From: Patescibacteria group bacterium
GTDB taxonomy: Bacteria; Patescibacteriota; Minisyncoccia; Portnoybacterales; GWB1-42-6
Length of the DNA: 64,000 nt
Assembly (NCBI GenBank): GCA_022709865.1
Contig: JAKLIA010000002.1
Location: 210,183 to 274,182 of the forward strand
Reading direction: 5' to 3'
The translations under genes were made by a program, and so were the position numbers. This document shows, in pieces, positions 3,672-32,393 of the stretch. Each line of letters starts with the position of its first letter. Position 1 is the first letter of the stretch. Under the pieces are notes generated by a model, which worked only from the letters and a program-made list of their open reading frames with translations, was not told the origin of the DNA and made no database searches.

Positions 3672-4178
3672 TTATTGTTTGTCGTATTTTTCCAAAGAAT
3701 CATCTAATATGAACAGCTTAACACCTGCATTTTTAAAAAGCTTCCGGCTGGCTTCGTCGCTATGATATTTTTTTTGCGCCACAACCCTTTTCACGCCTAC
3801 CCGAACAATGCGCCGAGCACAATTAATGCAAGGCGTCATCCTGCAATAAAGCGTTGACCCGCGCAGCGCTATGCCATCCATGGCGGCCTGCAAAATCGCG
3901 TTCTCTTCCGCGTGAAGCGTGCGCACGCAATGCTGGGACTGATGGCCATTTTCATCTATAACTGTGTTCATCAAATGCCCGGCTTCATCGCAATGCTTAT
4001 CGCCCGGAGCCGAACCGACATAGCCGGTGGTTAAAATCGTGTTGTGCTCGCTAACAATAACTGCGCTAGCCCGCCCTCGATCGCAAGTTGCCCGCCGGCT
4101 TAAAGGTTCCAGCATTCCTAAAAAATACTCATCCCAATTAGGCCGAATATGTTTTGATTGTATTTTTTTTATTTTCAT
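3672..4178 (-). CDS. dCMP deaminase (cytidine/deoxycytidylate deaminase family)
   Basis: HAEENAI zinc-binding motif plus PCINCARRI (PCxxC); 168 aa. Confidence 0.85.
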   Translation of the reverse strand: MKIKKIQSKHIRPNWDEYFLGMLEPLSRRATCDRGRASAVIVSEHNTILTTGYVGSAPGDKHCDEAGHLMNTVIDENGHQSQHCVRTLHAEENAILQAAMDGIALRGSTLYCRMTPCINCARRIVRVGVKRVVAQKKYHSDEASRKLFKNAGVKLFILDDSLEKYDKQ

Positions 4179-4211
4179 AGCTTTTATAGTTAATCAATTT
4201 TAAGCTGTCCA

Positions 4212-4250
4212 AAAATAAAAAGCAAGGCCTTAAAAACCCTTGCTTTTTAT
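4212..4250. terminator. Rho-independent terminator (bidirectional hairpin) downstream of rplK
   Basis: AAAAAGCAAGG-ccttaaaaac-CCTTGCTTTTTAT: a GC stem flanked by an A-run and a T-run. Confidence 0.6.
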
Positions 4251-4514
4251 CTGTAAAATTAAAAGTGAGTTGGTTAATTTCAAAACACTCAAGCCGACCT
4301 GCCCGCCGATAACCAAAGCTGATTACTGAGAATTGTATTATTTTACACTTTTTATACCTTACAGTATCTTTCCGGCTAATCATTATCGGCTTTGGTAGGC
4401 GCGGCAAGCGGGCACGGTGCCCCGCGGTTGCGGGGCGAGCGAGGAGGCTTGGTGAATCAAATTTTTCACGCTGGGGGAAATTTGATGATTTTGAAATTAA
4501 TTAACGAACGGCGT

Positions 4515-4937
4515 TTATTCCACTTTAATACCCATGCTGCGCGCGGTGCCTTCGATAATTTTCATCGCCTGCTCAACATCGTTCGCATTCAAATCCGGCA
4601 TTTTCTTTTCGGCAATTTGCCTGATCTGCTCTTTGGTCACAGTGCCAACCTTATCTTTCAATGGGTTAGCCGCGCCCTTAGCAATGCCGGCTGCTTTGCG
4701 CAGCAAATCCGCCGCTGGCGGGGTTTTAAACTTTAATTCGTATGTCCGGTCTTCAAAAATGGTTATTTCTACCGGCACAACATCACCAATGTTTTTCTTG
4801 GTGCCTTCATTAAACCGGCTGCAAAACTCCATTAAGTTCATTCCGTGAGGACCCAAAGCTTGGCCAACTTTTTGGCCCGGAGTCGCCTGTCCCGCTGGCA
4901 ACTGCATTTTTAACATCGTTTTTATTTTTTTTGCCAT
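4515..4937 (-). CDS. rplK: 50S ribosomal protein L11
   Basis: MAKKIKTMLKMQLPAGQATPGQKVGQALGPHGMNLMEFCSRFN...; canonical L11, 140 aa. Confidence 0.95.
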   Translation of the reverse strand: MAKKIKTMLKMQLPAGQATPGQKVGQALGPHGMNLMEFCSRFNEGTKKNIGDVVPVEITIFEDRTYELKFKTPPAADLLRKAAGIAKGAANPLKDKVGTVTKEQIRQIAEKKMPDLNANDVEQAMKIIEGTARSMGIKVE

Positions 4938-4985
4938 TGTTTTTTAAAGCCCTGAGGCTGAAGCTATCCTCAAAACCTTCTCTTA

Positions 4986-5528
4986 TTATATTTTTTTAAT
5001 CTGCAAAAAGTCCAATTCCACCGGCGTTTCCCGCCCGAACATAGAGATCAACACCTTCACCCGGCCGCGCTCTTCATCCACTTCCGCCACTTTGCCATCG
5101 GTATCCTTGAACGGCCCATCGACTATTTTAACCGAATCGCCAAAAGCAATATCCATTTTATACTTCGGCTCTTCAACGCCCATCCGCTTTTGCAATTCTT
5201 TTATCTCTTCCGGCGAAACCGGCGTCGGAGTCGTGCCTGAACCCACAAAGCCTGTGACCCGGGGGGTATTTCGCACCACATACCAGGAATCGTCCGTCAC
5301 GATCATTTCCACCAGCACATAGCCTGGGTATATTTTTTCTTCCACTACCCGGCGCTTGCCGGCTTTAATTTTGATCTTCTTTTCGATCGGAACAAGCACA
5401 TTAAAGATCTTGTCTTCCATGCCCATAGATTCTATGCGCTGTCGCAAATTACGCGCTACTGCCTCTTCGTATCCTGAATAAGTATGCAGAACATACCAAT
5501 TCCGACCTCTAGAAACTTGCTTTGCCAT
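4986..5528 (-). CDS. nusG: Transcription termination/antitermination factor NusG
   Basis: NGN domain (WYVLHTYSGYEEAV) and KOW motif (GDSVKIVDGPFKDTDGKV); lies in a secE-nusG-rplK arrangement. Confidence 0.9.
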   Translation of the reverse strand: MAKQVSRGRNWYVLHTYSGYEEAVARNLRQRIESMGMEDKIFNVLVPIEKKIKIKAGKRRVVEEKIYPGYVLVEMIVTDDSWYVVRNTPRVTGFVGSGTTPTPVSPEEIKELQKRMGVEEPKYKMDIAFGDSVKIVDGPFKDTDGKVAEVDEERGRVKVLISMFGRETPVELDFLQIKKI

Positions 5529-11249: not shown

Positions 11250-12260
11250 CTATTTTACCTCTAAAACAACTTTTCCGCACTCTTTACTGCCAAAAAGCTC
11301 ATAAGCCTTATCAATATCAGATAAAGCAAACTGATGGGTTATGATCTTTTTAATATCGTTCCTTATTTTTTTGCTCTCTAATAATTTCATAAACTCCAGC
11401 ACTTCTTCGTGGGGATAGCCAAAACAGCCAAAGACAGCTAATTCCCGATACATCAAGCGCAAAGTGTCCAGCGGATATTTTTTCGGATTAATGCTCAGTA
11501 TAGCCAGCTTCCCTCCCCTCCTCAAAGAATGAAAAGCAGACTCCATTAATTCCAACGACCCGCTAGTCTCAAAAGCGCTATCACAAGTCCGCCTAATGCT
11601 TAAAAAATTGCTCGCTTCTATTATTTTAGCGCCAAAGATCTCTTGGGCCAGGCGTTGCCGATAAGCTCCTTTTTCCATAATAAAGATTTCTTTAACTCCG
11701 AAGTTTTTTAAAAGATAACCAAGCGTTAAACCGATAGGGCCAGCACCTAAAATTAAAACCCGGTTCATCTTCCCGCCAATCCTTTTTATTGCATGATAAG
11801 CAATGCTTATCGTATCACCCAATAACGCCCCCTCTTTAAAGCCTATATCGGGCGGCAAAGTAAAAAGAACGGTTTGCGGCGCCACTAGATATTCCGCATG
11901 CGAACCAGGCCGGCTTAAGCCAAAAATCCCTTGTTTATTACACCAATTGCTATGCCCGCCGCGGCAAAACTCACATTGGCCGCAAGCAATATGGGGCGAA
12001 CCAAAAACCCGGTCTCCCTTTTTAAAGTTTACTACTTTTTTCCCGACCGCTTCGATAATTCCGGTCCACTCATGGCCCAAAACGATTTGGCGTTTGTCGT
12101 AAACTTTATCCGCTAGATCACCAGCCATAATGTGCAAATCTGTGCCGCAAAGCGCTGATGCTTTGATTTTCACCAAAACCTCCCCTGCCGCCAATTCCGG
12201 CAAGCCCAGATCTCCTAAAGAAAACTTTTTCTTTTTAAAATTAAAAATTGTCGATATCAT
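11250..12260 (-). CDS. Zinc-dependent alcohol dehydrogenase family (MDR; threonine/sorbitol dehydrogenase-like)
   Basis: GHEWTGIIEAVG zinc signature, structural Zn cysteines CGQCEFCRGG, and Rossmann motif LGAGPIGL. Confidence 0.75.
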   Translation of the reverse strand: MISTIFNFKKKKFSLGDLGLPELAAGEVLVKIKASALCGTDLHIMAGDLADKVYDKRQIVLGHEWTGIIEAVGKKVVNFKKGDRVFGSPHIACGQCEFCRGGHSNWCNKQGIFGLSRPGSHAEYLVAPQTVLFTLPPDIGFKEGALLGDTISIAYHAIKRIGGKMNRVLILGAGPIGLTLGYLLKNFGVKEIFIMEKGAYRQRLAQEIFGAKIIEASNFLSIRRTCDSAFETSGSLELMESAFHSLRRGGKLAILSINPKKYPLDTLRLMYRELAVFGCFGYPHEEVLEFMKLLESKKIRNDIKKIITHQFALSDIDKAYELFGSKECGKVVLEVK

Positions 12261-12264: not shown

Positions 12265-12489
12265 CTATTTTAGATAATAATTTTTTGCCGGACTGTCTTC
12301 AGGCTGGCTAAAACCCGCGGGTTGCTCAAGGCTAGCTCCGTCAGAAAATTGCGCCTGGCCGTACGAAAGGATGTCTTCTACAAAATTGAAAGAAAAAGAA
12401 AAGACTACAAACAGCCAAAAAATAATTCGGCCAAAAATTATAGCCTTCTCTTTTAGTGATTTATTTTTTATTTCCATATTAAATGCCAA
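12265..12489 (-). CDS. Small hypothetical membrane protein
   Basis: 74 aa with one TM segment; overlaps the upstream gene start by ~20 nt; weak support. Confidence 0.2.
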   Translation of the reverse strand: MAFNMEIKNKSLKEKAIIFGRIIFWLFVVFSFSFNFVEDILSYGQAQFSDGASLEQPAGFSQPEDSPAKNYYLK

Positions 12490-14135
12490 AGCGGTTGCTC
12501 AGTAAATAAAATGACCAAAGCGGCAAAAACACCGCAAAGTACTATCGCCTGCCACTCTTTAAAGCTCTTTTTATTGATTAACCAAAAGCCCACCAGGGGC
12601 ATTAATAAGAATATCGGAATTGAAAAACCAGGAATATCAGGGTAAAAAAACGGCACCGCCAAGAAGGCAGCAGCCAGACAAAAACCGCAAGCTAATTTTC
12701 CGCCAACTTCGCCAAAAATAACCGGCAGAGTCCAAACTTCTTCTTTTTTGTCTCCTTCCCTGTCTTTAATATGGATAAAGTTCATCCCTAGGGTGAAAAA
12801 GACTAGCAAGAACAGAATCGTCCTAGCCGGAAAATCAAAAATAGTTTTATCAGAAAAAAGCAAAAAGCCGCCCAACACCCCCAAGGTTACGCCGCTAGCA
12901 ATACAAAAAGTCGAAATGAACGGATATTTTTTTAAGCGGAAAGGATAATTAGAATAAATATATGAGATAGCCGAACGGATCAAAATAGTTATAAAAAACG
13001 CATAGCCAGCCATCAACGCACAAATATATGAGGCGACCCGAAAGATCAGATTAAGGCTTTTCACCTCGCTGTGGCTAAGCTGGCCAGAGGGCAATGGCCG
13101 ATAGGCTTTGGATATTCTGTCTCCCCCTTCGTCCGCTAAGTCATTTGAACCGACAGCAAAAAGCCAAGAAAAAAATATTGCCAAACTTGCTATAATGATC
13201 AACAAAATATCAAAAAAATTAAATCCGTTAGGCCCGGCTAAATATATCCCGTAATAAAAAGCTCCTAAATACAAAGCCAAGCGCTCCGGCCGAACATTTT
13301 TAGCCAGCGCTAAAAGCTTATTTTTGTCATAACGCCAAAACCAAATAGCCGCGAAAATAACTATGAACAAAAAGTATAACGAAAAAAGGATGAAGTTCCA
13401 AGAAAAGTCAGGGTTTATTTTAGAAACATTGTGAAATGAAGACGATTCGTTCGGCAATCCCAGCCAAGCCGTTATCAGATAAGGAAAAAACTCTGCGACA
13501 AACATAATGGCTCGCGCTATTAATAAAAACAATATAGACCTCCAAATATTTTTTGTTTTTAAAAAGACATAGAACATCGCTCCCAATATAACCAAGCCGA
13601 CCTCTATTCTCACCCCAAAACTATGGGAAAACAGCGAATTAAAAGCTTCTGCGTTTCCCCAGCCCCAAAATTGGTTAGCAAAACGCAATAAACCATTCGG
13701 GGCAAAAAAAATAAAATTATAACAGCCAATCAAAATATCACTTAAACCAGAAAAAGGCAGCTCAGAATATCTCACGGCAATATCTTTGCCTCGGGAAAAA
13801 ACGAGGTCAAAAACCGGAGCAGCCAAAATCCAAGGCGCCAGCCACAACGAAGCCTTGCTTACTTTTTCAATTCGCTGCCCCGTTAAAAAATGAGAAATCA
13901 AAATAAAAGCCCCAAAAATAAACAGATACGAAGCAACCGAGTGCAAAAAGAAAAAAGACCAGCTTTGGGGGCTTAAAAAATTAAAACCGGAAGAAAACGC
14001 CTCCAAAAAGTTTCTAATAAAAACAATAAAGATAAAGGTTATGAACCAAGCGCCAAAACCTATTGATTCGTTCTCTGCTTTTTCGATAAAAGAAAGCAAC
14101 AGAGACCAGGACTTTTTCAATAGCGATAACATCAT
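12468..14135 (-). CDS. Membrane protein fusion: N-terminal unknown polytopic domain plus C-terminal UbiA-family prenyltransferase
   Basis: The C-terminal half has UbiA motifs NDLADEGGDRISKAYRPLPSG (NDxxDxxxD...RPLPSG) and a second Asp-rich IKDREGD. The N-terminal ~270 aa contain multiple TM helices and no known motif. Confidence 0.65.
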   Translation of the reverse strand: MMLSLLKKSWSLLLSFIEKAENESIGFGAWFITFIFIVFIRNFLEAFSSGFNFLSPQSWSFFFLHSVASYLFIFGAFILISHFLTGQRIEKVSKASLWLAPWILAAPVFDLVFSRGKDIAVRYSELPFSGLSDILIGCYNFIFFAPNGLLRFANQFWGWGNAEAFNSLFSHSFGVRIEVGLVILGAMFYVFLKTKNIWRSILFLLIARAIMFVAEFFPYLITAWLGLPNESSSFHNVSKINPDFSWNFILFSLYFLFIVIFAAIWFWRYDKNKLLALAKNVRPERLALYLGAFYYGIYLAGPNGFNFFDILLIIIASLAIFFSWLFAVGSNDLADEGGDRISKAYRPLPSGQLSHSEVKSLNLIFRVASYICALMAGYAFFITILIRSAISYIYSNYPFRLKKYPFISTFCIASGVTLGVLGGFLLFSDKTIFDFPARTILFLLVFFTLGMNFIHIKDREGDKKEEVWTLPVIFGEVGGKLACGFCLAAAFLAVPFFYPDIPGFSIPIFLLMPLVGFWLINKKSFKEWQAIVLCGVFAALVILFTEQPLWHLIWK

Positions 14136-14199
14136 TATAAAAAATTAATTTATTATCAAAATTATTGTCTTGTTTAGTATAACTATACCGAAAAATAGG

Positions 14200-15330
14200 T
14201 TATTTTTCCATAATAAACCTCTCAGCTGCGCTGGCCAAAGCCGAGCACCTTCCCTTAGGAGATTTAAACCTTGCGTTAAATCGGCTAAATATTTCTTCCA
14301 AGCTTGATTCCCTTATATTTCCAACCGGATAAGACCAAAAAGCGCAAGGACAGAGATTGCCAATGGCATCCAAATAAAAATTGCCCAAACCGCCCATACA
14401 GCCCACTAATTTATCTTCTAATTCAAAAAAGCTTGAGCACTTTATCTTCCTGCGGCTATGATTAACCTGCTTAGCCAATTCATAAAATCTTTGTTTTTCA
14501 GCTGCCGATAAGCCAACAGCATATTCGGCTGAAAAATAAGCGCCGGAAGGCTTAGGCTCTAAAAACTGCAACTCATGGACGCCAAGGCCTTCAAGCAGAT
14601 CAACAAACTTAAAAAATATTTCTGGCGAGTTTATCATTTTCCGGCTTAAAACAGTTTCAACGATAACGCAAAAGCCAACCTCTAAAGAGTTTTTTATGGC
14701 CTCAACGGCATCATTAAAAGCTCCTCGGCGATTTTTACCCCTATCATTTGTTTCTTCGTCGCCAAAATCAAGGCCTATTTTCATCAGCATTAACTTGCTT
14801 GCCTCCCTTAACTCTTTTGCTTTTTGCAGAGAAAGACCATACCCGGAAGTGCAAAGGGCAATAAAAAGATCTTTTTTATTTATTTCTGAAATGATTTCTG
14901 GCAAATCCGAACGCAAAAGCGGTTCCCCTCCGGTTAAACCAACCTTGGAGATCCCTTTGCTTTTAAAAAACTCCACTGTTTTTATTATCTCTTCGAGGCT
15001 AGTCTCCTTGCCCTTAGGCGCGCTTTTATTGGAACAAAACTCGCAATTATTTGGACAATCATTAGTCACACATATTCCTAAATATTCAGGGGTATATTTT
15101 TTATTAAAAAAGTTTTCAATCCATTTCAGATAGAAATTAAAGGGCCGGGATAATAAAGGAGGAATAAAGGTTGAAAAAAAATATTGGTCGCCAACCAAGA
15201 TCGTTTTCTCCTTTAAAGCCAGCTTGAATAGCTTCCATTTAATAACCGGCGACAATCTTAAGACTTCCCAGCGGCAAAGAGTCTTAATTAATATAATAAT
15301 CTTTTTTAACCAGATTCTAAGGCTTTTCAT
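14200..15330 (-). CDS. Radical SAM / SPASM-domain protein
   Basis: CPNNCEFC (CxxxCxxC), GGEPLL, and a C-terminal SPASM signature GCMGGLGNFYLDAIGNLCPC; a ~90 aa N-terminal extension is shared with the next paralog. Confidence 0.75.
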   Translation of the reverse strand: MKSLRIWLKKIIILIKTLCRWEVLRLSPVIKWKLFKLALKEKTILVGDQYFFSTFIPPLLSRPFNFYLKWIENFFNKKYTPEYLGICVTNDCPNNCEFCSNKSAPKGKETSLEEIIKTVEFFKSKGISKVGLTGGEPLLRSDLPEIISEINKKDLFIALCTSGYGLSLQKAKELREASKLMLMKIGLDFGDEETNDRGKNRRGAFNDAVEAIKNSLEVGFCVIVETVLSRKMINSPEIFFKFVDLLEGLGVHELQFLEPKPSGAYFSAEYAVGLSAAEKQRFYELAKQVNHSRRKIKCSSFFELEDKLVGCMGGLGNFYLDAIGNLCPCAFWSYPVGNIRESSLEEIFSRFNARFKSPKGRCSALASAAERFIMEK

Positions 15331-16548
15331 CTATTTTTTAATTTCTTTATAAATATCCGGCAATTCCGAAAAATCTAATTTGCTTAAAATCTTGCCGGCT
15401 TCGTCTTTTAAAATTGGCAGTTGGCCCGCATAAGCTCGGCTGACTTCTTTAGCGCAAAAGATCGAAGTGCAAACTTTCATGGGCTGCTTAAACACCTTCT
15501 TGAATCTGGCGTAAATATCTTCCAGTCTTTCCTCTTTTACGTTGCCCAAGAATAACGGCGCCAAAGGGCATGGGGTCATCTCTCCGCCCGTTCCAAGATA
15601 AAACTGCGTCAACCCGGCATTACAGCCAAAAAGCTTGGCGCTTTCAAAATAATTCAAAGAGAAAAAACGCAAACCGGAAAAACGCCTATCTTTATTTATT
15701 TTTATATGCAACCGGCAAAGTTCCTCCCGATCTTTATCGCTAAAAAGAATATCTTCTCCCGCGTTATAAAGATTGCCTGAGGGTTTGGGCTCATAGACCA
15801 TAACCTCATTTGCGCCAAGAGACTTAATAAAATCTAAATATTTAACCATTTCCGGCCAACTATAAAGCATCTTTTTCGTCATGACCATCACCGAACAAAC
15901 ATACAGGCCAGCCTCCTTGCCTATTTTTATCGCCTGAACCGCTGTTTTAAAGGCCCCTGAAAATCCTACTGTGCCATCAACCACCTTCTCGTCGTAGTGG
16001 TCCAAGCTCACCTGCAAAGACTCTAGACCCGCCTCTTTCAATTTCTCAGCCCGCTCCAGCGTTAGACCATAACCATTGGTATCTAAATGAACAGCGCAAT
16101 GCTTAGCTCCTTCCCTAACAATCTCTTCCAGGTCCGGGCGCAATAATGGTTCGCCGCCAACAATAAAAATGCCGAATATTCCCTTCGCCTGAAAAAAACT
16201 TATTACTTCTTTGATCTTTTCTAGCGATAGATTCTCTTCGGCTTTATTTTTTTTGTTATAACAATAAAAACAATTTCCGGGGCATTGGTTAGTAGCCGAA
16301 ATTATTAAAGCTTGCGGGTCATAAATACCTTGCTCCATTTTTTTAAAAAGCCTCAGCATCCGATCACTAGCCTCAGAAGGGCAAGCCGGCAAATATGAAT
16401 TGCTATAAATCTTTCCCCGAAACTTTAAAACTCGCTCATGGCGAGTAATTTTAGCGATCTGCCAGATAGTTTTTGGCGACAGGCGCCAAAAATCCGGGCT
16501 CCGCCAAAAATGCAACAGATACAATTGGCTTTTTATAAACTCCAGCAT
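15331..16548 (-). CDS. Radical SAM / SPASM-domain protein (paralog of 14200..15330)
   Basis: CPGNCFYC, GGEPLLRPDLEE, and C-terminal GCNAGLTQFYLGTGGEMTPC plus VCTSIFC. The ORF extends to 16659 but overlaps the upstream gene, so the start is probably an internal Met (about 16548, or alternatively 16359). Confidence 0.7.
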   Translation of the reverse strand: MLEFIKSQLYLLHFWRSPDFWRLSPKTIWQIAKITRHERVLKFRGKIYSNSYLPACPSEASDRMLRLFKKMEQGIYDPQALIISATNQCPGNCFYCYNKKNKAEENLSLEKIKEVISFFQAKGIFGIFIVGGEPLLRPDLEEIVREGAKHCAVHLDTNGYGLTLERAEKLKEAGLESLQVSLDHYDEKVVDGTVGFSGAFKTAVQAIKIGKEAGLYVCSVMVMTKKMLYSWPEMVKYLDFIKSLGANEVMVYEPKPSGNLYNAGEDILFSDKDREELCRLHIKINKDRRFSGLRFFSLNYFESAKLFGCNAGLTQFYLGTGGEMTPCPLAPLFLGNVKEERLEDIYARFKKVFKQPMKVCTSIFCAKEVSRAYAGQLPILKDEAGKILSKLDFSELPDIYKEIKK

Positions 16549-16576
16549 TAAAAGTATAAAATATTTTAGGCTTTTC

Positions 16577-17674
16577 TTATTTTTTTCTCTCAAGCATAAA
16601 GCCTGCCAAATCGCAGAAAAACTTTTTTGCTTCGCTCTCAAAAGCTGGCTGGGCAGCATCCAAATATTTTATGGCTCTCTTAAGCCGCGTTTGTGCATCT
16701 TGCCGGCAATAATCAAGGCTGCCAAGCTTCTTAAAAAGGTTAATAACTGCTCCAATTTCTTTAGCCGAAGCTTTTTCTTTGCCCAGAACAGATAAGATCT
16801 GCTGGCGCTGGCTGGAGTTAGCTTTTTTCAAAGCATGTATGACCAATAATGTCTTTTTGCCTTTGCGGATATCAGAACCAATACCTCGCCCTTTGCCGCC
16901 GTCAGAATCAATATCCAAAATATCGTCCTGCATTTGAAAAACAATTGCCGCTTCTTCAATATAAGCGTCTAGCGCCCGTTTTTGGGATTCGGTCGCATCT
17001 CCCAAAATTGCCCCCCAGGCCATAGCTGATTTGAAAAGCTGGCCGGTCTTGCACAAAACCATATTATAATAATCCTGCTCACTGACAATTTCATCCTGCT
17101 CAAAATGCAGGTCCATCGCCTGTCCGGTATTGTCAAAAATGGAAACTAATTGATGAAGATTCATGCCAGCCACTTTTTTAGCCTCGGATATATTCGACTC
17201 TAAAATCGGGAAGCTGCTGATGGTGTGCAAATATTTACCGTTAATGATTCCAGCAACCGCCCCAAAGCGCGAAGCAAAGTTTTTATACAGCTTATTTTCG
17301 GCAATTTTATTGAACTTGTCCTTTTTAAACTGCTGCTCAAATAAAATATGGACCGAGGCTTTTCCGCGCCGCTTATCATCTTCATCATAAATATCGTCGT
17401 GAATCAAAGTGTAGTTGTGATAAAGCTCAAAAGCTAAAGCCGGTTCAACAACCTTCTTCTCATCTTTCCCCCCAACCGCCCGATAAGCCATCAGCGTTAA
17501 GATCGGTCTTAACCGCTTGCCATCGCCCAGGCAATATTCCCGAAAGATCCGATATTGGTCCAGAATAAAAGAGTTTTTAAAGTTAGGCAGACCTTTTATA
17601 GTTTTGCGCAAATAACGGTCCATCTCTTTGTTGATGATCTTCTGGTATTTTTTTATAGTTTTTTCAAAATCCAT
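16577..17674 (-). CDS. Polyprenyl diphosphate synthase (trans-isoprenyl diphosphate synthase, GGPPS/IspB-like)
   Basis: First DDxxD in LIHDDIYDEDDKRRG and second Asp-rich motif FQMQDDILD; 365 aa. Confidence 0.85.
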   Translation of the reverse strand: MDFEKTIKKYQKIINKEMDRYLRKTIKGLPNFKNSFILDQYRIFREYCLGDGKRLRPILTLMAYRAVGGKDEKKVVEPALAFELYHNYTLIHDDIYDEDDKRRGKASVHILFEQQFKKDKFNKIAENKLYKNFASRFGAVAGIINGKYLHTISSFPILESNISEAKKVAGMNLHQLVSIFDNTGQAMDLHFEQDEIVSEQDYYNMVLCKTGQLFKSAMAWGAILGDATESQKRALDAYIEEAAIVFQMQDDILDIDSDGGKGRGIGSDIRKGKKTLLVIHALKKANSSQRQQILSVLGKEKASAKEIGAVINLFKKLGSLDYCRQDAQTRLKRAIKYLDAAQPAFESEAKKFFCDLAGFMLERKK

Positions 17675-21816: not shown

Positions 21817-23757
21817 CTACTGCGGCGCAGTCTCTTTCCAATCAGGCAAAGGCAAGCGAATAGAAAGAGCCTCTGTTCTTTGTGCCGGATAACCATCACT
21901 GTCAGTAATATTTAAAGTTATCTGGGCTAGCCCGCTAGCGGAGAAGGTTACTTGAGGCGCGGCTTGGCCATCGGCTGAAGCCGGAGTGCCACCCGCGAAA
22001 GTCCAATGATAATTAGCTAAAGGACAATCTATTTCTGTTCCGTTGTTTCTATAACACTTAACAATGGCACCAAAAACTGCTTCTTCGCCAACTGAAGGAT
22101 TAGCCGGCGCCCAATAAAGATCGGTGATGGAAGGATATTGGTGCAAAGGAGTGGTAAAAGAGGAGGTAGAAGGAGTTATCCAATCGGAACTAGCGCCGTG
22201 ATTATCCCATACTTTCAGCCGCCAATAATATTTCTGGTTATAAACTAATTTTCCGGAACCTGTGGCATAAGCCTGAGAAGCCGAAGAGATTTGTCCTGTA
22301 TCAACAACTGTGCCTGGACCGGAGAACCCAGCATTAGTAGCTATCTGGATTTGATAAGCAGATTGAGTGTCGCCTGCATCCGGGTCAGTGAATGTCCAGG
22401 AGAATGTGGCAGCTGGACCGGAAGAGCGATAGTCTGGCTGGGTAGCTAATAAATTAATCGCGCTAGGCGGAATATTGCACGGCTCAATGTTGCAAGCTTG
22501 AGTTTGGGTTGCAGAACCAGAACAGCTGGCCCCACCGCAAGGCGCGGGATTGGTGCAAGTTCGAGTGCTTGTTTGTGTGCCGCCACCACAAGAGACAGAG
22601 CAACTAGACCAACTAGACCAACTAGACCAGCCGCCAGCAACCGCACAATCGGCCGCGCAAGAAGAACAGGTCTCTGTGCCGTTACAAACCCCATCACCGC
22701 AACAAACCGCCGCACCGGTTTTGTATGGCCCGGCGATAGCGTTGCCTAAAGTGCTATACGGAAAAATAACATTTGGACTATTGTCTATATTAAAAAACTT
22801 ATTAGCGCCAGTCACGACCCCCCCGCCAACAGGCAAGCCCCATTCTCCTGTTATAACATAAGGATAAGTATAATCGCCTAAAGATTTCATTACATAAGCC
22901 ACATACATATTATCCGGCGCTGTTGCATCAGTAAATGAACAAACCTTGCCCGAGCATAGCTCGCTATATGGCAAAGTTCTTAAAGCCCCAACATCTGAAG
23001 CAGTATTATAAGCATTCTCACCGCACGAAGAAACGTTTGAAGCATTACAACTATCAGAGTCCGTCCTGAGCCAGCCATTTCCTACCTGAGTTTTTATATA
23101 ATAAAACCAACTGTCCAGAGCGCTCTGGCTGCTGCTGCTAGGCAGAGTTAAGCGATAAATAGCTACTTGGCGACTATTGTCAGATGAATAATCTGGCGCC
23201 TGCTGAAAACTGCTAGAAACAACAGCGGTCGCATAGCACTTTGAACCAACCCTAATAGATTGGCTAAGAACCCAATAATCGGATACGGCCGAGGCACAAT
23301 TTGTATCCACATAACGATGAGCACTGTTATCTAAGGCGTCTACAGTATGCACTACACCATTACATTGGCCCCACTCATCATGTTGCGTGCAATCGTTATA
23401 AGTATAATACCGATAATAATAATCAGGGCGGGGGTTATAGAAAGTTACTGGTATTTGAAAACTGCAATCAGTGCCAGACATTGACGTCGGGACGATGGTC
23501 ACACCACCACCAGAAGAAGAGATATCGCAAATCACGCCTGTATAACAAAGAACTGCCGCACCCGGATCAAGCGGAGAAAGAAGAATAGAGACGATATTAA
23601 CTCCTATTGCCTGCGATACCGCATTAATAACATTTGATAGGCCGCCGGTTAAAATACTAACAACACTGCCCGCTTGCGCAGTTTTGGCCGACAGCAAAGA
23701 GAAGGAAATCGCCACTAATAAAATAACTATAAAAACTTTGTTTTTAAATAAGCTCAT
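21817..23757 (-). CDS. Large secreted protein with thrombospondin type-1 repeat and FN3-like region (candidate pilus-associated adhesin)
   Basis: Signal peptide [29 protein letters not shown] and a canonical TSP1 repeat [35 protein letters not shown]. Lies at the head of the minor-pilin operon. Confidence 0.6.
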
Positions 23758-24590: not shown

Positions 24591-26087
24591 TTGTCAAGCC
24601 TAGAGGCTATTTGCTATAATCAAGCTATGTTGCTACCTTTTCTCTCTTCCCTCCTAGGCATTATAGCTTTCCTGCCGCTAAATTGCTATCCGGCCAGCCT
24701 TGTTTTCCTAATTCCGCTTTTTATTTTCTTTTTAAAAGAAAATAAGCTTTGGCGGCTGGTCGCTGGCGCCTTTATTTTTAAAATTGTCTTTGCGCTGGGC
24801 GCGGCGTATTTCACTCTGGAACCGATTGCCTGGGCTTCGGAACTTTTAATTATTTTCTTTTTGCCGCTTAATATCTGGCTGGCTAAAAAATTGCTTCACC
24901 ACCTCTGCCAATCGCAGCCAATCAATTTTTTCAATAAAGAGCTCGCTCTGCTTTTTCTTTTGCCCTTTTTATTCACCCTTTCCGACATCCTGCAGGCCCG
25001 ATTCTCTTTATTGCCCAGCTACATTATGGCGGCCGGCAATAGTTTGGGCTCCTCCCCTTTCTTGGGGCTGGCGGGCTTAGGCGGAATAACTTTTTTAACT
25101 TTTTTTGCCGCGTTAATTAATGCCTTGCTGGCTGCCCTATTTTTAAAATTGCGCTCGCTTTACAAAAATAAAAACAATTCGCCAGCGCCAGAGAAAAAAA
25201 CGTGCTTTGTTCTTGCTGCCTTGTTGGTTCTAGCGCTGCTAGCCGGCTGGCTAATTTCTTTTTGGCAACTAAACAAAAATACCGACGAATATAACAGCAA
25301 AACTAGTATTATTAAAATCGCTGTCTTATCAGCCAAGGAATCTTTATATCCGGCTCAATTCGAAGAGACAAAAAAAGAGCTAACCAAACAACAGATAGAC
25401 CTCCTGGTCCTGCCGGAAAATATTTTTTACGACCCCGCCAACCCCGCCTACTTTTCCAACAATTACACCGGCTTCATGCAAAACCTGGCCCAAGAAATTG
25501 GCGCCAATGTTATCGCTGTTTTTGATACCTTCCAAGAACAAAAAAAATATAATTCGGCGGTTCTATTCAACAAACTAGGCGAGACTATCGGCATCCATAG
25601 CAAGTTCCGCATTACTTTTGCCGGCGAATATTGGCCTTTTGGCTCGTGGCAACCGCCGCTATCGGATCTTTTAAAAAAATCCTCGCCAGAGATAAAGAAC
25701 TTTGCCGTGTTTGACCCTAAGAACGCTTACAGCCGCGGCCAACAAAATAATCTTAATATTGTTTCTCAAAATAAAAGCGTTGTTTTTGCCGCGCCGGTTT
25801 GCTTGGAAATCCAATACCCCGACGACTTAAAATATTATCGGCAAACCGGCGCCCAATTTATCGTTAATCCGTCCAGCAACCGCTGGGTAGGGACCGGTTT
25901 AAAACACTTTCTCTATTTAACCGGCAACCTAAAAAAAATCGAGGCCGTCTGGCTGGGCTTGCCGGTCATTTCCAGCGGCGTTAAAGACTATGCTGGCCTA
26001 ACGCTGCCTAACGGCCAAACTTTTTTAAAAGACTCCTTAGAGTCAAACTTAAATTACACGTTGTTTTTTGGGGAAATAAAATATTAA
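24591..26087 (+). CDS. lnt: Apolipoprotein N-acyltransferase-like (N-terminal polytopic domain plus C-terminal CN-hydrolase)
   Basis: N-terminal ~6 TM helices followed by a nitrilase-fold E-K-C triad context (LLVLPE, HSK, PVCLE). The only plus-strand gene in the window. Confidence 0.6.
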   Translation: MSSLEAICYNQAMLLPFLSSLLGIIAFLPLNCYPASLVFLIPLFIFFLKENKLWRLVAGAFIFKIVFALGAAYFTLEPIAWASELLIIFFLPLNIWLAKKLLHHLCQSQPINFFNKELALLFLLPFLFTLSDILQARFSLLPSYIMAAGNSLGSSPFLGLAGLGGITFLTFFAALINALLAALFLKLRSLYKNKNNSPAPEKKTCFVLAALLVLALLAGWLISFWQLNKNTDEYNSKTSIIKIAVLSAKESLYPAQFEETKKELTKQQIDLLVLPENIFYDPANPAYFSNNYTGFMQNLAQEIGANVIAVFDTFQEQKKYNSAVLFNKLGETIGIHSKFRITFAGEYWPFGSWQPPLSDLLKKSSPEIKNFAVFDPKNAYSRGQQNNLNIVSQNKSVVFAAPVCLEIQYPDDLKYYRQTGAQFIVNPSSNRWVGTGLKHFLYLTGNLKKIEAVWLGLPVISSGVKDYAGLTLPNGQTFLKDSLESNLNYTLFFGEIKY

Positions 26088-26491: not shown

Positions 26492-27274
26492 TTAAAAGCC
26501 AAGCAAAAAATAAAGCCAATCAAAAAAACGCTCTCCGGCAAAATAGACCCCCATCGTTCCAAAAACCAGAAAAGGCCCAAAAGGAATCTGCGATTTCATT
26601 GTTTTTTTGCCCAAGAGCATCAGCAAGACTCCGGCCGCTGCGCCAATAAAAAAAGCCAAAAACAAAGCCATAAAAATACCCGGCCAGCCCAATAATAAGC
26701 CCATCAAAAAAGCTAACTTTATGTCGCCTATTCCCATTCCCCGGCCGCGGGTAATCAAAACTAAAGACAAGAAAAAGGCTGCTGCGCCAAAAGCGGAAAA
26801 AAGATACGGATAGAAACCCGCCAATCCCCCGGTTAATAGCCAACTCTTGCTTATAGCTAACAAAAAGGCTGCGCCGATAGCCGGCCAAAGGACTTTGTCC
26901 GGAATGACATAATGGCGTAGGTCATAAACAAAAACGACAACTAAGCTGGCGGCAATATACCAATTGAGCGCTAATTGAAAAATAAAAAGTGAGTTAGGCT
27001 CCACAAACTTATAAGCCAAAACAAAAAGAGCGCCGGTAATTATTTCTACCAACGGATATTGGAGAGAGATAGCCTTTTGGCAATAACGGCAGCGGCGGCG
27101 CAAAAGAATGAAGCTTAAAAGCGGTATCAGATCAAGCCAACTTAAAACATGGCCGCAATGAGGGCAATGAGAACGGCTTTTTACTATTTCCTCTCCTGTG
27201 GCTAAACGGCAAATAACTACGTTTAAAAAACTGCCGATAGTCAAACCAAAAATAAAAATTAAAACTTCCGCCAT
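26492..27274 (-). CDS. pilD: Prepilin peptidase (A24 family)
   Basis: N-terminal tetracysteine CPHCGH...CRYC, catalytic Asp region and GMGIGDIKLAFLMG; 260 aa. Confidence 0.85.
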   Translation of the reverse strand: MAEVLIFIFGLTIGSFLNVVICRLATGEEIVKSRSHCPHCGHVLSWLDLIPLLSFILLRRRCRYCQKAISLQYPLVEIITGALFVLAYKFVEPNSLFIFQLALNWYIAASLVVVFVYDLRHYVIPDKVLWPAIGAAFLLAISKSWLLTGGLAGFYPYLFSAFGAAAFFLSLVLITRGRGMGIGDIKLAFLMGLLLGWPGIFMALFLAFFIGAAAGVLLMLLGKKTMKSQIPFGPFLVFGTMGVYFAGERFFDWLYFLLGF

Positions 27275-27315
27275 ATATTTTGTTAGCGCTATTTGCTTTA
27301 TTTTATCATTTTTCT

Positions 27316-27358
27316 AAAACAAAAACCATTAGCTTTGAGCTGATGGTTTTTGTTTTTT
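27316..27358 (-). terminator. Rho-independent terminator downstream of pilA
   Basis: AACAAAAACCATTAGC-tttga-GCTGATGGTTTTTGTTTT: a ~15-bp stem with one mismatch and a T-run. Confidence 0.6.
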
Positions 27359-27378
27359 CCAAATTTAGAAAAGTCAAA

Positions 27379-27834
27379 TTAAGGAGTCACGTCATAAACC
27401 GGGTCTGTGCCAGCAAAGCCACTAGTAGCGCAATCGGCCGCAGCCGCATCCGCATCACTGTTTAAAGCAGTGTTAGGCAAAGCTTCTAGTCCCGCTACCT
27501 TAGTTCCTAAATGATATCCTTTAGTGGCAGACACGCAATATTGGTATGAGTTTGTTCCGTCCGGATCCAATGGCACCGCGCTAAGATAGGTTGGAGTCAA
27601 GGTGCTTAAAGCAGCCGGATAAGAGCCAGAGGCGTCATAATACATCTGCAAAGCCAGCTGCACTTGGCGAATATCAGAAATACGCCGCGCGTCGCGAGCT
27701 TTAGCCCGAGCGGTATTCAGCGAAACCATCACAATAGTCGCTAAAATACCGATGATAGAAATAACTACCAAAAGTTCGATCAAAGTAAAACCCTTCGTTA
27801 AGTAAGATTTTTTTTGTTCTTTCATTTTTTTCAC
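27379..27834 (-). CDS. pilA: Type IV major pilin
   Basis: KG|FTLIELLVVISIIGILA prepilin signal; 151 aa; a C-terminal Cys pair (CVSATKG...DCATSG); has its own terminator. Confidence 0.8.
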   Translation of the reverse strand: MKKMKEQKKSYLTKGFTLIELLVVISIIGILATIVMVSLNTARAKARDARRISDIRQVQLALQMYYDASGSYPAALSTLTPTYLSAVPLDPDGTNSYQYCVSATKGYHLGTKVAGLEALPNTALNSDADAAAADCATSGFAGTDPVYDVTP

Positions 27835-27864
27835 CTCCCTTCCATGCCGCGCTAAAGCGCGTAT

Positions 27865-29076
27865 TTATATACTATTAGCTACGCCATAAATTGGCATCAA
27901 AATTGCCGATACCAGAATAGCTACGCCGCCGCCGATCATTAAAATAAGTATCGGCTCTATCAATTGCGACATAGTTGCCGCGGTATTATCTACTTCTTTA
28001 TTATAAAACTGTCCGAGTTTTTTTAAAATAGTGTCCAAAGACCCCGTTTGCTCGCCCGTAGCGATCATTTGTGTTACCAAAGCCGGAATCTCTTTGTGTT
28101 TGGCAAAAGAGCTGGAAAGAGTATTGCCAACCCTGACCTCTTCTTTAGCTTCTGATACTATTTTTTGATAAACAACATTCCCCACCACTTCGCTGGTTAC
28201 TTGCAGGGCTTGCAAAATGGAAAGTCCGCCCTGGATCAAAGTGCTCAGATTATCAGCAATGCGCGTGATGTAAATCTTTTGAAAAACTTTTTTGCCAAAA
28301 ACGGGCAGATGGATCTTTAAAGTATCCCATCTTTCCCGCGCGACAGGCGAAGTCCTGATAGCATGGACAATATAATAAGCGCCCGCTGCTAGCGCCATTC
28401 CCAATAACCACCACCAATCTATTAAAAAATTAGAGAGAGCAATAAGCGCTTTGGTAGTAAACGGCAATTCCTGCCCGGATTCTTTCAAAAAGCTGGTTAA
28501 TTTAGGAACCACCATGATCATCATCAAAACCACGATCAAAACGAAAGCGCCTAAAATAAAGATTGGATAAGTTAAGGCCCCGCGAATCTTGGAGTTTAGA
28601 TCGTATTGTTTTTCCAAATAATCAGCTAAGTAATTTAATGATGCTTCTAGCCCCCCTGAGGCCTCGCCGGCTTTTATCATATTAACAAAAAAATCAGAAA
28701 AAACTTTCGGATGCTTGGCTAAAGCCTTTGAAAATACTGTGCCACCCTCAACATCACCGGCTACTTCAAAAATGATCTCCCTGAAATATTCGTTTTCCGT
28801 TTGGTTGGAAAGCGATTGCAAAGAAGAAAGAAGCGGCACCTGCGCTGAAACCAAAGTCGCCAGCTGCCTGGAGAAGTTGGTGAGGTCTTTCATTTTTACC
28901 CGCTGGAATATCTTTAATTTAGCCGAAAAAATAGACCCGCTTCGTCCGCTTTTTAGGTCCAGCAACACCAAGCCCCGCCCTTGCAACGTTTCAATGGCGC
29001 TATTGCGGCTAGATGCTTCCACGGCTCCGGTTTGCATCTCCCCTTGTTTTGTTCGAGCAATATAATTAAACTCCAT
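27865..29076 (-). CDS. pilC: Type IV pilus assembly platform protein PilC (GspF family)
   Basis: 403 aa with two GspF repeats and three TM segments. Confidence 0.85.
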   Translation of the reverse strand: MEFNYIARTKQGEMQTGAVEASSRNSAIETLQGRGLVLLDLKSGRSGSIFSAKLKIFQRVKMKDLTNFSRQLATLVSAQVPLLSSLQSLSNQTENEYFREIIFEVAGDVEGGTVFSKALAKHPKVFSDFFVNMIKAGEASGGLEASLNYLADYLEKQYDLNSKIRGALTYPIFILGAFVLIVVLMMIMVVPKLTSFLKESGQELPFTTKALIALSNFLIDWWWLLGMALAAGAYYIVHAIRTSPVARERWDTLKIHLPVFGKKVFQKIYITRIADNLSTLIQGGLSILQALQVTSEVVGNVVYQKIVSEAKEEVRVGNTLSSSFAKHKEIPALVTQMIATGEQTGSLDTILKKLGQFYNKEVDNTAATMSQLIEPILILMIGGGVAILVSAILMPIYGVANSI

Positions 29077-29086
29077 AATTCATTTT

Positions 29087-30160
29087 TTACCTCTGCAAAA
29101 TCATTTTTAATTCGTGGGCGTTGTTAGAATATGTTTGGGCATTTTCAAGGCTAATCATACCGCGATTTACCAAATCTACCAAGGACCGATTTAATGAGAT
29201 CATGCCTTCTTCGGCGCTCGTTTCTATCACCATATCAATTTGGTGCGTTTTGCCTTCACGGATCAGATTGCGAACTGCGGAATTAGCGATCAAAAGCTCT
29301 ACCGCGTTGATCATTCCGCCTTTTACCGACGGAATTAAGCGGCGGGAAAGAATGCCCAGCAGCGTAGCAGAAAGCTGCATACGGATCTGCGTTTGCTGAT
29401 GTGGCGGAAAGCTGTCAATAATGCGGTCAACGGTTTGGGCGGCGGTATTGGTATGCAAAGTAGAAAAGATCAAGTGCCCTGTCTCGGCCGCGGTCATAGC
29501 GGTGGAAATAGTTTCAGAATCCCGCATCTCCCCGATCATCGCCACATCCGCATCTTGGCGGAACATTGCCCGAAGCCCCTGCTGAAAATCGGCCACATCC
29601 ACGCTCACTTCGCGCTGGTCAATAATGCATTTATCCTGCGGGAAAATATATTCTATTGGGTCCTCAATAGTTATCATGTGGTCTTGGCGGGTATGGTTTA
29701 TTTCGTCCACCATCGCGGCTAACGCCGTTGATTTGCCGTGCCCCGACGGCCCCACCACCAAGAAAAATCCTTGAGTAGCCTGGGTAAATTGGTGCAAAAT
29801 ATGCGGTAAGCTTAATTCTTCGATCGTGCGTATCTTAGCGGGTATAAACCGCATCGCCGCCGCGATATTATTGCTTTCCTGATAAATGTTAACCCGGAAT
29901 CTGGCCTTATCTTTATACGCCATCGAAAGATCGACATCTTTGTTAAGCAAAAACTTTTCTTCTTGCTCTTTATTAAGCAAGCTCATAATCAGGCTCCTGG
30001 CGCGCTCGGGCGAAAGCGTTTCCCGGTCAGCCAGCATTGTTAGGCTTCCATCAACTCTAAGGATAGGCGGCCGGCCAACCGAAAGGTGCAAATCGGTAGC
30101 ATCACGTTTTATAACCTCTTCTAAAAGATCTTCTATGTCTTTTTTATAATCATCTGGCAT
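29087..30160 (-). CDS. pilT: Type IV pilus retraction ATPase PilT
   Basis: 357 aa; Walker A VVGPSGHGKST and a PilT-family secretion ATPase core. Confidence 0.8.
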   Translation of the reverse strand: MPDDYKKDIEDLLEEVIKRDATDLHLSVGRPPILRVDGSLTMLADRETLSPERARSLIMSLLNKEQEEKFLLNKDVDLSMAYKDKARFRVNIYQESNNIAAAMRFIPAKIRTIEELSLPHILHQFTQATQGFFLVVGPSGHGKSTALAAMVDEINHTRQDHMITIEDPIEYIFPQDKCIIDQREVSVDVADFQQGLRAMFRQDADVAMIGEMRDSETISTAMTAAETGHLIFSTLHTNTAAQTVDRIIDSFPPHQQTQIRMQLSATLLGILSRRLIPSVKGGMINAVELLIANSAVRNLIREGKTHQIDMVIETSAEEGMISLNRSLVDLVNRGMISLENAQTYSNNAHELKMILQR

Positions 30161-30195
30161 AAATATTTTTTATAATTTTATAATAAAGGATTTAG

Positions 30196-30618: not shown

Positions 30619-30652
30619 AATAAAATTATTAATCTCCTAATTTAATCAAAAC

Positions 30653-32296: not shown

Positions 32297-32304
32297 AAAA
32301 AAAG

Positions 32305-32360: not shown

Positions 32361-32393
32361 TTCACGATTCATTCTTTATAGTTTTTTGGTCCC

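Follow-up and report, generated by a model that had tools for sequence, protein, structure and literature searches.

Background

Among described systems, the closest to the gene module reported here are the archaeal membrane prenyltransferase DGGGPS (MjDGGGPS, 6M31/7BPU) and AfUbiA (4TQ3). The module lies in a 64-kb window, by which we mean the whole stretch of DNA that was analysed: 64,000 nucleotides from a Patescibacteria group bacterium (Portnoybacterales; NCBI GenBank assembly GCA_022709865.1, contig JAKLIA010000002.1, positions 210,183 to 274,182 of the forward strand). It brings together genes for a polyprenyl synthase, two radical SAM (rSAM) paralogues, a UbiA prenyltransferase fused to an N-terminal membrane domain (hereafter the fusion protein), a small membrane protein and a Zn-dependent alcohol dehydrogenase (Zn-ADH). 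The reading that we favour, tentatively and with not quite an even chance of being right, is that this operon builds a tailored C20 prenyl (ether-type) membrane lipid. Like the archaeal enzymes, the fusion protein has a UbiA fold with nine transmembrane (TM) helices, a cytoplasmic cap and conserved motifs, and its gene is paired with one for an archaeal-type geranylgeranyl diphosphate (GGPP) synthase. It differs in that its UbiA portion is only ~20% identical and falls far under the equivalog cut-offs, in the extra 275-aa N-terminal domain of six TM helices (hereafter the N-domain), in its bacterial host, a member of the candidate phyla radiation (CPR), and in having no GGGPS or glycerol-1-phosphate (G1P) dehydrogenase partner within the locus. 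We know of no characterised UbiA enzyme with such an N-terminal domain, and in our literature search no publication dealt specifically with such a fusion or operon in CPR.

A second group of related systems comprises the archaeal tailoring enzymes Tes (GDGT-MAS, 7TOL), Gms, GrsA/B, Ted and Hgs, which the present loci recall in having rSAMs and an AttH/CrtC-like hydratase beside isoprenoid-lipid genes. Gms carries a full SPASM domain with two auxiliary clusters, and the module rSAMs are built like it, with an N-terminal extension ahead of the rSAM core and a C-terminal Fe-S domain behind it (PMC11186832), although they keep three conserved Cys residues as opposed to the seven or eight of Gms-type SPASM domains. 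Grs and Ted are B12-rSAMs (bioRxiv 10.1101/2025.10.20.683597), whereas the module rSAMs have no B12 domain. To Tes there is no specific homology, the rSAM score being no better than that of unrelated rSAMs. The nearest solved relatives of the module rSAMs belong to the twitch/SPASM group (SkfB, 6EFN; MoaA; PqqE), and the cysteine pattern suggests a single auxiliary cluster. Even here, however, the equivalog scores are far under the cut-offs, no peptide-recognition domain or precursor peptide is evident, and the N-terminal ~80 aa of the module rSAMs (R-x-L-P...W...PP-x-PS) are absent from those proteins.

Archaeal-type ether-lipid enzymes also occur in bacteria. Paired GGGPS and DGGGPS genes are found in the FCB group (Ca. 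Cloacimonadota), and one Parcubacteria genome with such homologues has been noted (PMC7852524). Those pairs, however, comprise a canonical GGGPS and an unfused DGGGPS near TACK-archaeal sequences, whereas the module UbiA belongs to a separate, fused family. The mycobacterial decaprenyl-phosphate phosphoribosyltransferase (Rv3806c, 8J8J) is likewise a UbiA-fold membrane enzyme with neighbouring oxidoreductases and extracytoplasmic transferases; it differs in using phosphoribosyl pyrophosphate rather than a prenyl diphosphate, in being less similar than DGGGPS and in having no fused N-domain. CPR/Patescibacteria account for much of bacterial diversity and are regarded as incapable of making membrane lipids of their own, being assumed to scavenge all lipids.

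Gene content and layout

Domains were assigned to the open reading frames (ORFs) of the module by Pfam and NCBIfam scans. The module genes are co-directional and closely packed on the minus strand, and are listed here from the synthase onwards.

16577..17674, minus strand: trans-isoprenyl diphosphate synthase, 365 aa (Pfam polyprenyl_synt, E=9e-52)
15331..16548, minus strand: rSAM paralogue 1 (rSAM1), 405 aa counted from Met38 (Radical_SAM, E=2e-27; partial SPASM match; twitch-like C-terminal domain suggested)
14200..15330, minus strand: rSAM paralogue 2 (rSAM2), 376 aa (Radical_SAM, E=1.5e-26; partial SPASM match; architecture as in paralogue 1)
12468..14135, minus strand: fusion protein, 555 aa, N-terminal membrane domain plus UbiA domain
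13311..14135, minus strand: N-domain of the fusion protein, residues 1-275, an amphipathic helix and six TM helices
12468..13310, minus strand: UbiA prenyltransferase domain of the fusion protein, residues 276-555, DGGGPS-like, three catalytic motifs intact
12265..12477, minus strand: small single-pass membrane ORF, 70 aa from its ATG, recognised by position and architecture
11250..12260, minus strand: Zn-dependent medium-chain alcohol/polyol dehydrogenase, 336 aa (ADH_N and ADH_zinc_N)

An earlier note, made from the DNA alone, had described an isoprenoid module at 12468-17674 consisting of a polyprenyl synthase, two SPASM rSAM paralogues and a UbiA prenyltransferase fused to a membrane domain of about 270 aa of unknown type. 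All four ORFs are present at those coordinates on the minus strand, and the description as an isoprenoid module is supported, but its extent fell short, two conserved partners beyond 12468 (12265-12477 and 11250-12260) having been overlooked. The synthase matches its Pfam family as expected, the UbiA match of the fusion protein (residues 293-523) is preceded by residues 1-275 without a Pfam or NCBIfam match, and the two rSAMs are indeed paralogues, with 35% identity over 350 residues (E=2e-67).

The stop codon of rSAM1 directly abuts the start of rSAM2 with no gap, the small ORF, counted from its ATG, shares 10 nt with the end of the fusion gene, and 4 nt separate its own end from the start of the Zn-ADH gene. 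Although the rSAM1 frame is open back to 16659 (15331-16659, 442 aa), its start is most likely Met38, at window position 16548, because another assembly calls that start and homologues align from there; with this start, the 83-nt overlap with the synthase gene vanishes. Deposited names of the module proteins that were looked up are generic. An Rfam scan, in which riboswitches were sought, gave only three tRNAs.

Conserved core and variable genes

Neighbourhoods were counted over seven independent module loci, in which the fusion protein is 34-50% identical (the window, L005=L016, L007, L008, L009, L010 and L014/L015), and over five loci of distant fusion homologues, with the ORFs of each locus typed by BLAST against the window proteins. 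Scans of genomes and metagenomes with a narrower fusion-family alignment returned only two and three loci. A synthase gene (product 50-62% identical) lies upstream of the fusion gene in 7/7 module loci, and an oxidoreductase gene lies downstream in 7/7, encoding a Zn-ADH in six and a short-chain dehydrogenase/reductase (SDR) in L008. A small ORF of like shape directly follows the fusion gene in 6/7 of the related loci. Because the synthase adjoins the fusion gene in all seven loci, the arrangement is not due to chance.

The genes that accompany this set vary. Between the synthase and UbiA genes lie two rSAMs of the present clade in the window and in L007, one in L005 and one in L014, while L008 and L010 have no genes at this position. 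In L014, the single rSAM stands beside an ene-reductase of the old yellow enzyme (OYE) type (Oxidored_FMN, 3929-5131). The insert of L009 (4922-7915) encodes an unrelated full-SPASM rSAM with a peptide-maturase-like N-terminus and a 508-aa protein without a Pfam match. A CrtC/AttH-like hydratase gene (PF07143 + PF17186) follows the ADH gene in L007 (10812-11747) and L009 (10645-11667), and tblastn found none in the window. The core thus has four members, namely synthase, fusion protein, small TM protein and oxidoreductase; the rSAMs, present in zero, one or two copies depending on the locus, are lineage-specific accessories. The note's proposal that prenyl transfer is followed by radical tailoring stays plausible, given that rSAMs stand between synthase and UbiA genes in four independent loci and that a hydratase and an ene-reductase occur in relatives.

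One of the module loci, L005 (CAYQVD010000026.1), is labelled 'uncultured Bdellovibrionales'. It is identical to metagenome contig L016, its module is 46-56% identical to the Portnoybacteria one, and it is probably a mis-binned CPR contig.

Pilus genes recur in these neighbourhoods. A prepilin peptidase (PilD) gene directly precedes the synthase gene in L007, L014 and L008, and two distant fusion homologues (L018 and the P0055 locus) face Tad/Flp pilus operons in convergent orientation. In the window, a type IV pilus cluster lies upstream at 26492-35078 (PilM/N/O, PilB, PilT, PilC, pilins and prepilin peptidase), separated from the synthase gene by 8.8 kb that hold a hydrolase, a thrombospondin type-1 (TSP1) protein, pilins and LigA. 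The adjacency of pilus genes and module could be a functional link or inherited synteny.

Polyprenyl synthase

The first Asp-rich motif (FARM) of the synthase is DDIYD at 93-97, free of insertions and with Tyr88 at position -5, and the second (SARM) is DDILD at 250-254. The protein therefore combines the features by which archaeal type-I GGPP synthases are recognised, namely the polyprenyl_synt fold, an insertion-free DDxxD and an aromatic residue at -5. Under the chain-length rules for this family, an aromatic residue at -5 together with an insertion-free FARM ties to a C20 product. The top NCBIfam models are IdsA_Meth (226 bits, cut-off 468) and archaeal GGPP_syn (190 bits, cut-off 500), and the best solved relatives are the Pyrococcus and Geoglobus GGPP synthases 1wy0 and 5jfq. 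From this archaeal type-I pattern, the enzyme is predicted to make GGPP (C20); because it scores below the equivalog cut-offs, the product length stays a prediction.

UbiA domain of the fusion protein

Membership of the UbiA superfamily is clear, PF01040 scoring 95.1 bits against a cut-off of 34.2 (E=5e-27). The domain carries motif 1 as N331-D-x-x-D335-x-x-x-D339 (NDLADEGGD, 331-339), motif 2 as Y397-x4-K402 and motif 3 as D458-x3-D462 (DREGD, 458-462), which correspond to motifs 1-3 of MjDGGGPS (PMC9385802). Both Asp-rich motifs are kept across 32 homologues. In a search of PDB sequences, the DGGGPS 6m31 is the best match (48 bits), followed by chlorophyll synthase. The closest folds are 7bpu, 6m31 and 4tq3 (AfUbiA), with target-normalised TM-scores of 0.62-0.75, and the match to the membrane phosphoribosyltransferase fold 8j8j is weaker (E=1.4e-4). 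NCBIfam matches are to the PRK12884 prenyltransferase, homogentisate phytyltransferase (HPT), ChlG/BchG and DGGGPS, all far under their cut-offs.

Models of MenA, of UbiA acting on 4-hydroxybenzoate and of COX10 gave no NCBIfam match at E<=0.01, and none of these enzymes is found among the PDB sequence matches. The UbiA domain is thus closest to archaeal DGGGPS and AfUbiA and not to MenA, UbiA or COX10. The subfamily check that the earlier note had called for, carried out here with hidden Markov models (HMMs) and structures, groups the domain with DGGGPS, ChlG and HPT-type enzymes; clustering with the MenA or UbiA quinone enzymes, which the note would have taken as evidence against itself, was not seen. 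In agreement with its statement that the module fits neither the Mqn nor the Men pathway, models of these pathways are absent from the listed top NCBIfam matches of the module proteins (for the rSAMs, the best 25 of 65-67).

N-terminal domain of the fusion protein

The N-domain resembles nothing in the collections searched. Residues 1-275 have no Pfam or NCBIfam match, the family profile has no match among PDB sequences at E<=10, and Foldseek returned no PDB fold, the best hit having E=1 and a TM-score of about 0.2. The domain is not a diverged duplicate of the UbiA domain, a possibility ruled out by an hhalign probability of 0.8%. CPBP/Rce1, Lgt, BacA, PAP2 and GT-C were raised as motif leads and set aside, none having PDB sequence or fold support.

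Searched with a profile, 1.84 billion representatives yielded the N-domain in 1,478 clusters (50% identity), of which 1,209 have E<=1e-10. Nearly all of the best-scoring 150 are 500-550 aa long with the domain at residues 1-260, a near-uniform length and placement from which it follows that the N-domain is essentially always fused to UbiA. Judged from these searches, the fused UbiA family that carries this domain is large and uncharacterised.

AlphaFold2 (AF2) gives the full fusion protein a pLDDT of 91 and a pTM of 0.91, and the N-domain alone a pLDDT of 87. Conserved residues of the domain are E21, R41, E45, H65, P107, D110, Y123, G174, E178, Y189 and P218, the polar ones being R41, E45, H65, D110, Y123 and E178. 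Short loops at 86-95, 193-199 and 268-285 are rich in Lys and Arg, loops at 50-58 and 226-245 are poor in them, and the number of TM helices ahead of the UbiA domain is even in the AF2 model. Because of the positive-inside rule and this even count, we infer a position for the conserved polar residues in the outer-leaflet half of the bilayer, across from the cytoplasmic UbiA site.

Such a placement also suits a different product, which we consider unlikely: a polyprenyl-phosphate-linked sugar donor for a surface or pilin glycoconjugate, resembling decaprenylphosphoryl-phosphoribose (DPPR) or decaprenylphosphoryl-arabinose (DPA). The UbiA domain would then be a phosphoribosyl-type transferase acting on polyprenyl phosphate, epimerisation or reduction of the sugar would fall to the ADH or SDR, and the N-domain, with its polar cluster predicted in the outer leaflet, would transfer it to an extracytoplasmic acceptor. 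The exchange of the oxidoreductase partner, Zn-ADH for SDR, accords with this, DprE2 of the arabinose pathway being an SDR. So do the significant fold match to 8j8j and the type IV filament genes that recur nearby, PilD before the synthase gene in three loci and Tad/Flp beside two distant homologues; pilin arabinosylation in Pseudomonas uses a UbiA-type enzyme. Yet the closest sequence and fold relatives use prenyl diphosphate (E=6.6e-8 versus 1.4e-4), the synthase is a short-chain trans enzyme of the C20 type and not a carrier-lipid cis-prenyltransferase, and the CrtC/AttH hydratase and ene-reductase of sister loci point to chemistry on isoprenoid chains. The N-domain, for its part, has no similarity to GT-C enzymes in the PDB, and given how widespread pilus genes are among CPR genomes, inherited synteny may account for their adjacency. 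A tailored C20 prenyl lipid remains the product that we prefer.

Small membrane ORF and dehydrogenase

The product of the small ORF starts with a basic stretch, which is followed by one TM helix and by N-[ILV]-[LMF]-[STA]-Y. Its sequence conservation is weak, and the case for it rests on position and architecture; a role as small subunit of the membrane enzyme is possible. The Zn-ADH is Tdh/sorbitol-dehydrogenase-like, and its sequence shows the catalytic Cys38, the His-Glu pair and a four-Cys structural zinc site. It is not a Tdh orthologue, as the Tdh model scores 209 bits against a cut-off of 380.

Radical SAM paralogues

Both paralogues belong to the Radical_SAM superfamily (PF04055), with 97 and 94 bits against a cut-off of 29.5, and both also match Fer4_12. 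The CX3CX2C motif is invariant in the family alignment and begins at residue 89 of the 405-aa rSAM1. The SPASM label given to them earlier holds at best marginally: the Pfam SPASM match exceeds the 21.5-bit cut-off (22.5 bits in rSAM1, 26.2 in rSAM2), but it is partial and marginal, covering profile positions 1-47/50 of 67, and just three C-terminal Cys residues are conserved across the family (309, 327 and 360 in rSAM1). A full SPASM domain is defined by the seven-Cys motif CX9-15GX4C ... CX2CX5CX3C ... C and by a pair of auxiliary 4Fe-4S clusters, and neither paralogue has this motif. With three conserved C-terminal Cys, the domain would therefore be a half-SPASM with at most one auxiliary cluster, and its pattern suggests a twitch-like domain with a single one.

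The N-terminal motif RLSP..W.., formerly thought unique to the pair, proved to be common to the whole family as R-x-L-P...W ... PP-x-PS. As it is also found in homologues from unrelated genomic contexts, it is not specific to these two proteins. Orthologues of rSAM2 (P0062-P0065) are 49-57% identical, and two of them probably share contigs with fusion homologues, since the longest contigs recorded for each pair are equally long (P0063 and P0002, 12,863 nt; P0065 and P0004, 7,208 nt). The distant rSAM homologues P0071, P0074 and P0085 lie in unrelated neighbourhoods that gave no functional clue.

Kinship with Tes/Grs-type enzymes, which the earlier note had suggested, is not borne out. When the rSAM family profile is compared with solved structures, SkfB scores 122 bits over core and twitch domain, MoaA and PqqE score 97, Tes (7tol) scores 79 over the core only, and aminofutalosine synthase (6xi9) scores 30. 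On the Tes equivalog model NF045702, rSAM2 reaches 48.8 bits against a cut-off of 450, aligned over 86-229 only. Unrelated HxsC-like rSAMs of the window score 49-63 bits on the same model, so the resemblance to Tes is generic to the rSAM core. Pfam finds no cobalamin-binding (B12) domain in either paralogue, which, judged on domain architecture, sets them apart from the B12-rSAMs GrsA and GrsB. These results correct the view of the module rSAMs as relatives of Tes or Grs.

Nor do the paralogues look like peptide maturases. An enzyme of the peptide-maturase or anSME type would be recognised by a score above an equivalog cut-off together with a precursor peptide or an RRE, a combination that is lacking here: rSAM1 and rSAM2 score 86 and 79 bits on PqqE (cut-off 381), 61 and 51 on SkfB (300) and 76 and 54 on MftC (265), and Pfam finds no RRE/PqqD domain in either. 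With all rSAM family models far below their cut-offs, the paralogues do not cluster firmly with peptide maturases either; such clustering is what the earlier note had named as evidence against itself.

These comparisons bear on a further explanation, that SkfB-like rSAMs cross-link a peptide (the product of the small ORF, or a pilin) which the membrane prenyltransferase then lipidates. The peptide thioether maturase SkfB is the nearest solved rSAM relative, the fusion gene is followed by a small conserved ORF whose S/T-Y motif is invariant-like, and pilin and prepilin peptidase genes are near. We nevertheless regard this as very improbable. The likeness to SkfB spans core and twitch domain and not the peptide-recognition domain, the SkfB family model scores several-fold under its cut-off, as given above, and the small ORF is present in the rSAM-free loci L008 and L010 and looks like a membrane subunit. 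We know of no UbiA-family enzyme that prenylates peptides. We return to a prenyl lipid as the likelier substrate of the rSAMs.

Proposed pathway and its alternatives

Taking gene content, domain identities, conserved synteny and nearest structural relatives as the observed basis, we can propose a substrate, a product, a membrane topology and a chemistry for the rSAMs and the N-domain. The type-I GGPP-synthase-like enzyme would, from its homology and chain-length motif, supply geranylgeranyl diphosphate. The UbiA domain, with its Mg/diphosphate motifs on the cytoplasmic face, would transfer the prenyl group to a hydroxyl-type acceptor as DGGGPS does, the acceptor probably being a small polyol or ketose phosphate, or a glycerolipid. 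The Zn-ADH, or the SDR in one relative, would make or fix the acceptor or head group by carbonyl/alcohol redox, possibly by reducing a keto intermediate as alkyl-dihydroxyacetone-phosphate reductase does. That Zn-ADH and SDR can stand in for one another speaks for the redox step, and not the fold, being what counts. The N-domain, probably with the small TM protein, may form a second, polar-rich site at the outer leaflet that could bind, translocate or process the product; this is the least supported of the proposed steps.

The twitch-type rSAMs would then act on the prenyl chains at unactivated C-H bonds, for instance to cross-link, cyclise, desaturate or oxidise them, a role parallel to that proposed for the AttH/CrtC-like hydratase and the OYE ene-reductase in related loci. 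An AttH-like hydratase (Hgs) and rSAMs have been shown experimentally to tailor archaeal isoprenoid ether lipids (bioRxiv 10.1101/2025.10.20.683597; PMC11186832), and this is a direct precedent for the proposed step; the variable genes (rSAMs, hydratase and ene-reductase) fit isoprenoid tailoring. The module would give CPR at least one endogenous lipid or lipid-anchored product, and the fusion family offers a concrete target, open to cloning, for work on CPR membrane biology, on the bacterial side of the 'lipid divide' and on new rSAM chemistry with isoprenoid chains.

Several observations weigh against such a lipid pathway. No GGGPS/PcrB or G1P dehydrogenase is found among the module genes, the annotated window ORFs or the seven related loci. 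On the DGGGPS equivalog models, the UbiA domain scores only 36.9 bits against 296 (NF009521) and 35.5 against 353 (NF009522), while homogentisate phytyltransferase (72.9 bits) and ChlG (63.9 bits) equal or exceed the DGGGPS models. The distant fusion homologues (<33% identity) are solitary, having neither a synthase nor an ADH nor an rSAM gene within 8-10 kb, and the basal function of the family is therefore independent of the operon. The window holds 12 rSAM genes, so rSAM adjacency alone weighs less. Finally, the ends of the operon are not delimited, as the flanking genes on both sides are co-directional with gaps of 22-24 nt, and promoter and terminator scans stayed at background.

Since the HPT and ChlG scores match or exceed those of DGGGPS, an aromatic or other acceptor is conceivable. 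In the fullest form of this idea, which we rate as quite unlikely, the module prenylates an aromatic or tetrapyrrole head group to give a quinone-, tocopherol- or chlorophyll-like meroterpenoid cofactor, and the rSAMs build or modify the head group. Chlorophyll synthase is, as noted, the second-best PDB sequence match, and the top NCBIfam matches of the rSAMs (the best 25 of 65-67) include, below their cut-offs, the tetrapyrrole modifiers NirJ2 and AhbD. The family cut-offs, however, exceed all of these scores 3-6 times, and what the rSAMs match is generic to the core; no genes for head-group biosynthesis were found in the seven loci, and MenA, UbiA and COX10 matches are lacking. Some loci have no rSAMs, which therefore cannot supply an essential head group, and CPR bacteria are generally without respiratory chains.

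The stand-alone homologues raise a more sceptical explanation, which we think improbable: the neighbouring genes would be functionally separate, with a housekeeping synthase making farnesyl diphosphate or GGPP for undecaprenyl phosphate, and with an unrelated fusion protein, rSAMs and ADH kept beside it only by inherited synteny in a genome that is small and strand-biased. Nearly all genes of the window lie on one strand with short gaps, and conservation is far higher in the synthase (50-62% identity) than in the fusion protein (34-50%). In addition, a synthase is missing from the surroundings of distant fusion homologues, and scans for promoters and terminators were uninformative. Against this, the order of synthase and fusion gene is kept while the flanks differ wholly, consisting of LigA and pilins in the window, giant Gly-rich proteins in L009, and type IV secretion system genes with KsgA in L010. 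Moreover, rSAM and ene-reductase genes have been inserted specifically between the synthase and fusion genes, with stop and start codons overlapping. We therefore keep to a joint role of these genes in making a C20 prenyl lipid.

A bolder form of the lipid proposal, which we also hold to be unlikely, is that the protein uniting N-domain and UbiA domain forms a self-sufficient, hitherto unrecognised bacterial route to isoprenoid ether membrane lipids that extends across CPR/Patescibacteria, with the N-domain a new membrane-enzyme fold. The N-domain would then form the first ether bond or act on an outer-leaflet lipid, the UbiA domain would add the C20 chain, the ADH would give the stereocentre of the backbone, and cross-linking or cyclisation of the chains would be left to the twitch rSAMs. 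If this were true, CPR would make archaeal-like lipids by a pathway that is non-homologous to the archaeal GGGPS and G1P dehydrogenase steps.

Other features of the window

The ten further rSAM genes of the window lie at 35126-50744 on the minus strand (35126-36067; five at 37831-42601; 45338-46258; 46497-47834; and two at 48955-50744). Seven of the ten are HxsC/HxsC4-like (His-Xaa-Ser system), all below cut-offs, and the array is interleaved with a PMT_2 (GT-C) glycosyltransferase gene at 42591-44387, a DUF483 protein and a GT1 glycosyltransferase. Cassettes of the His-Xaa-Ser type, consisting of an HxsD-like gene, a small ORF and an rSAM, also occur a few kb downstream of the module in L007 (14259-16424) and L008 (10606-12649), where they echo the HxsC-like array of the window.

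Beyond this array, a hybrid polyketide synthase-nonribosomal peptide synthetase (PKS-NRPS) cluster occupies 50751-63976 on the minus strand of this CPR genome. It includes genes for a phosphopantetheinyl transferase (50751-51428), a DegT aminotransferase, a 2044-aa KS-KR-MT-ACP-C megasynthase (52505-58639), an A-PCP protein (58605-60509) and a KS-AT-linker/PCP/C protein (61868-63976) that reaches the window edge. The GC content is 0.31 at 50-54 kb versus about 0.42 elsewhere, a drop that suggests horizontal acquisition.

Three further loci drew attention. Two overlapping minus-strand ORFs at 939-1790 (AAA_18/AAA_17 kinase-like) and 1583-2962 (459 aa, with a weak ThyX/Thy1 match at residues 24-209) share about 200 nt; the downstream start may be mis-set, or the longer ORF may be an unusual long ThyX-like fusion. 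At 24591-26087, an Lnt-like protein (LNT_N + CN_hydrolase) is encoded on the plus strand, where no other sizeable gene that was checked has a domain match; as a protein of the apolipoprotein N-acyltransferase type, it points to lipoprotein acylation in a presumed lipid scavenger. Lastly, the secreted-looking TSP1 protein mentioned above (21817-23757, minus strand, 646 aa) carries a thrombospondin type-1 repeat (TSP_1, E=6e-12), of a kind unusual in bacteria, and an Ig-like Rha78A_N domain, and its gene lies beside four pilin-like genes.

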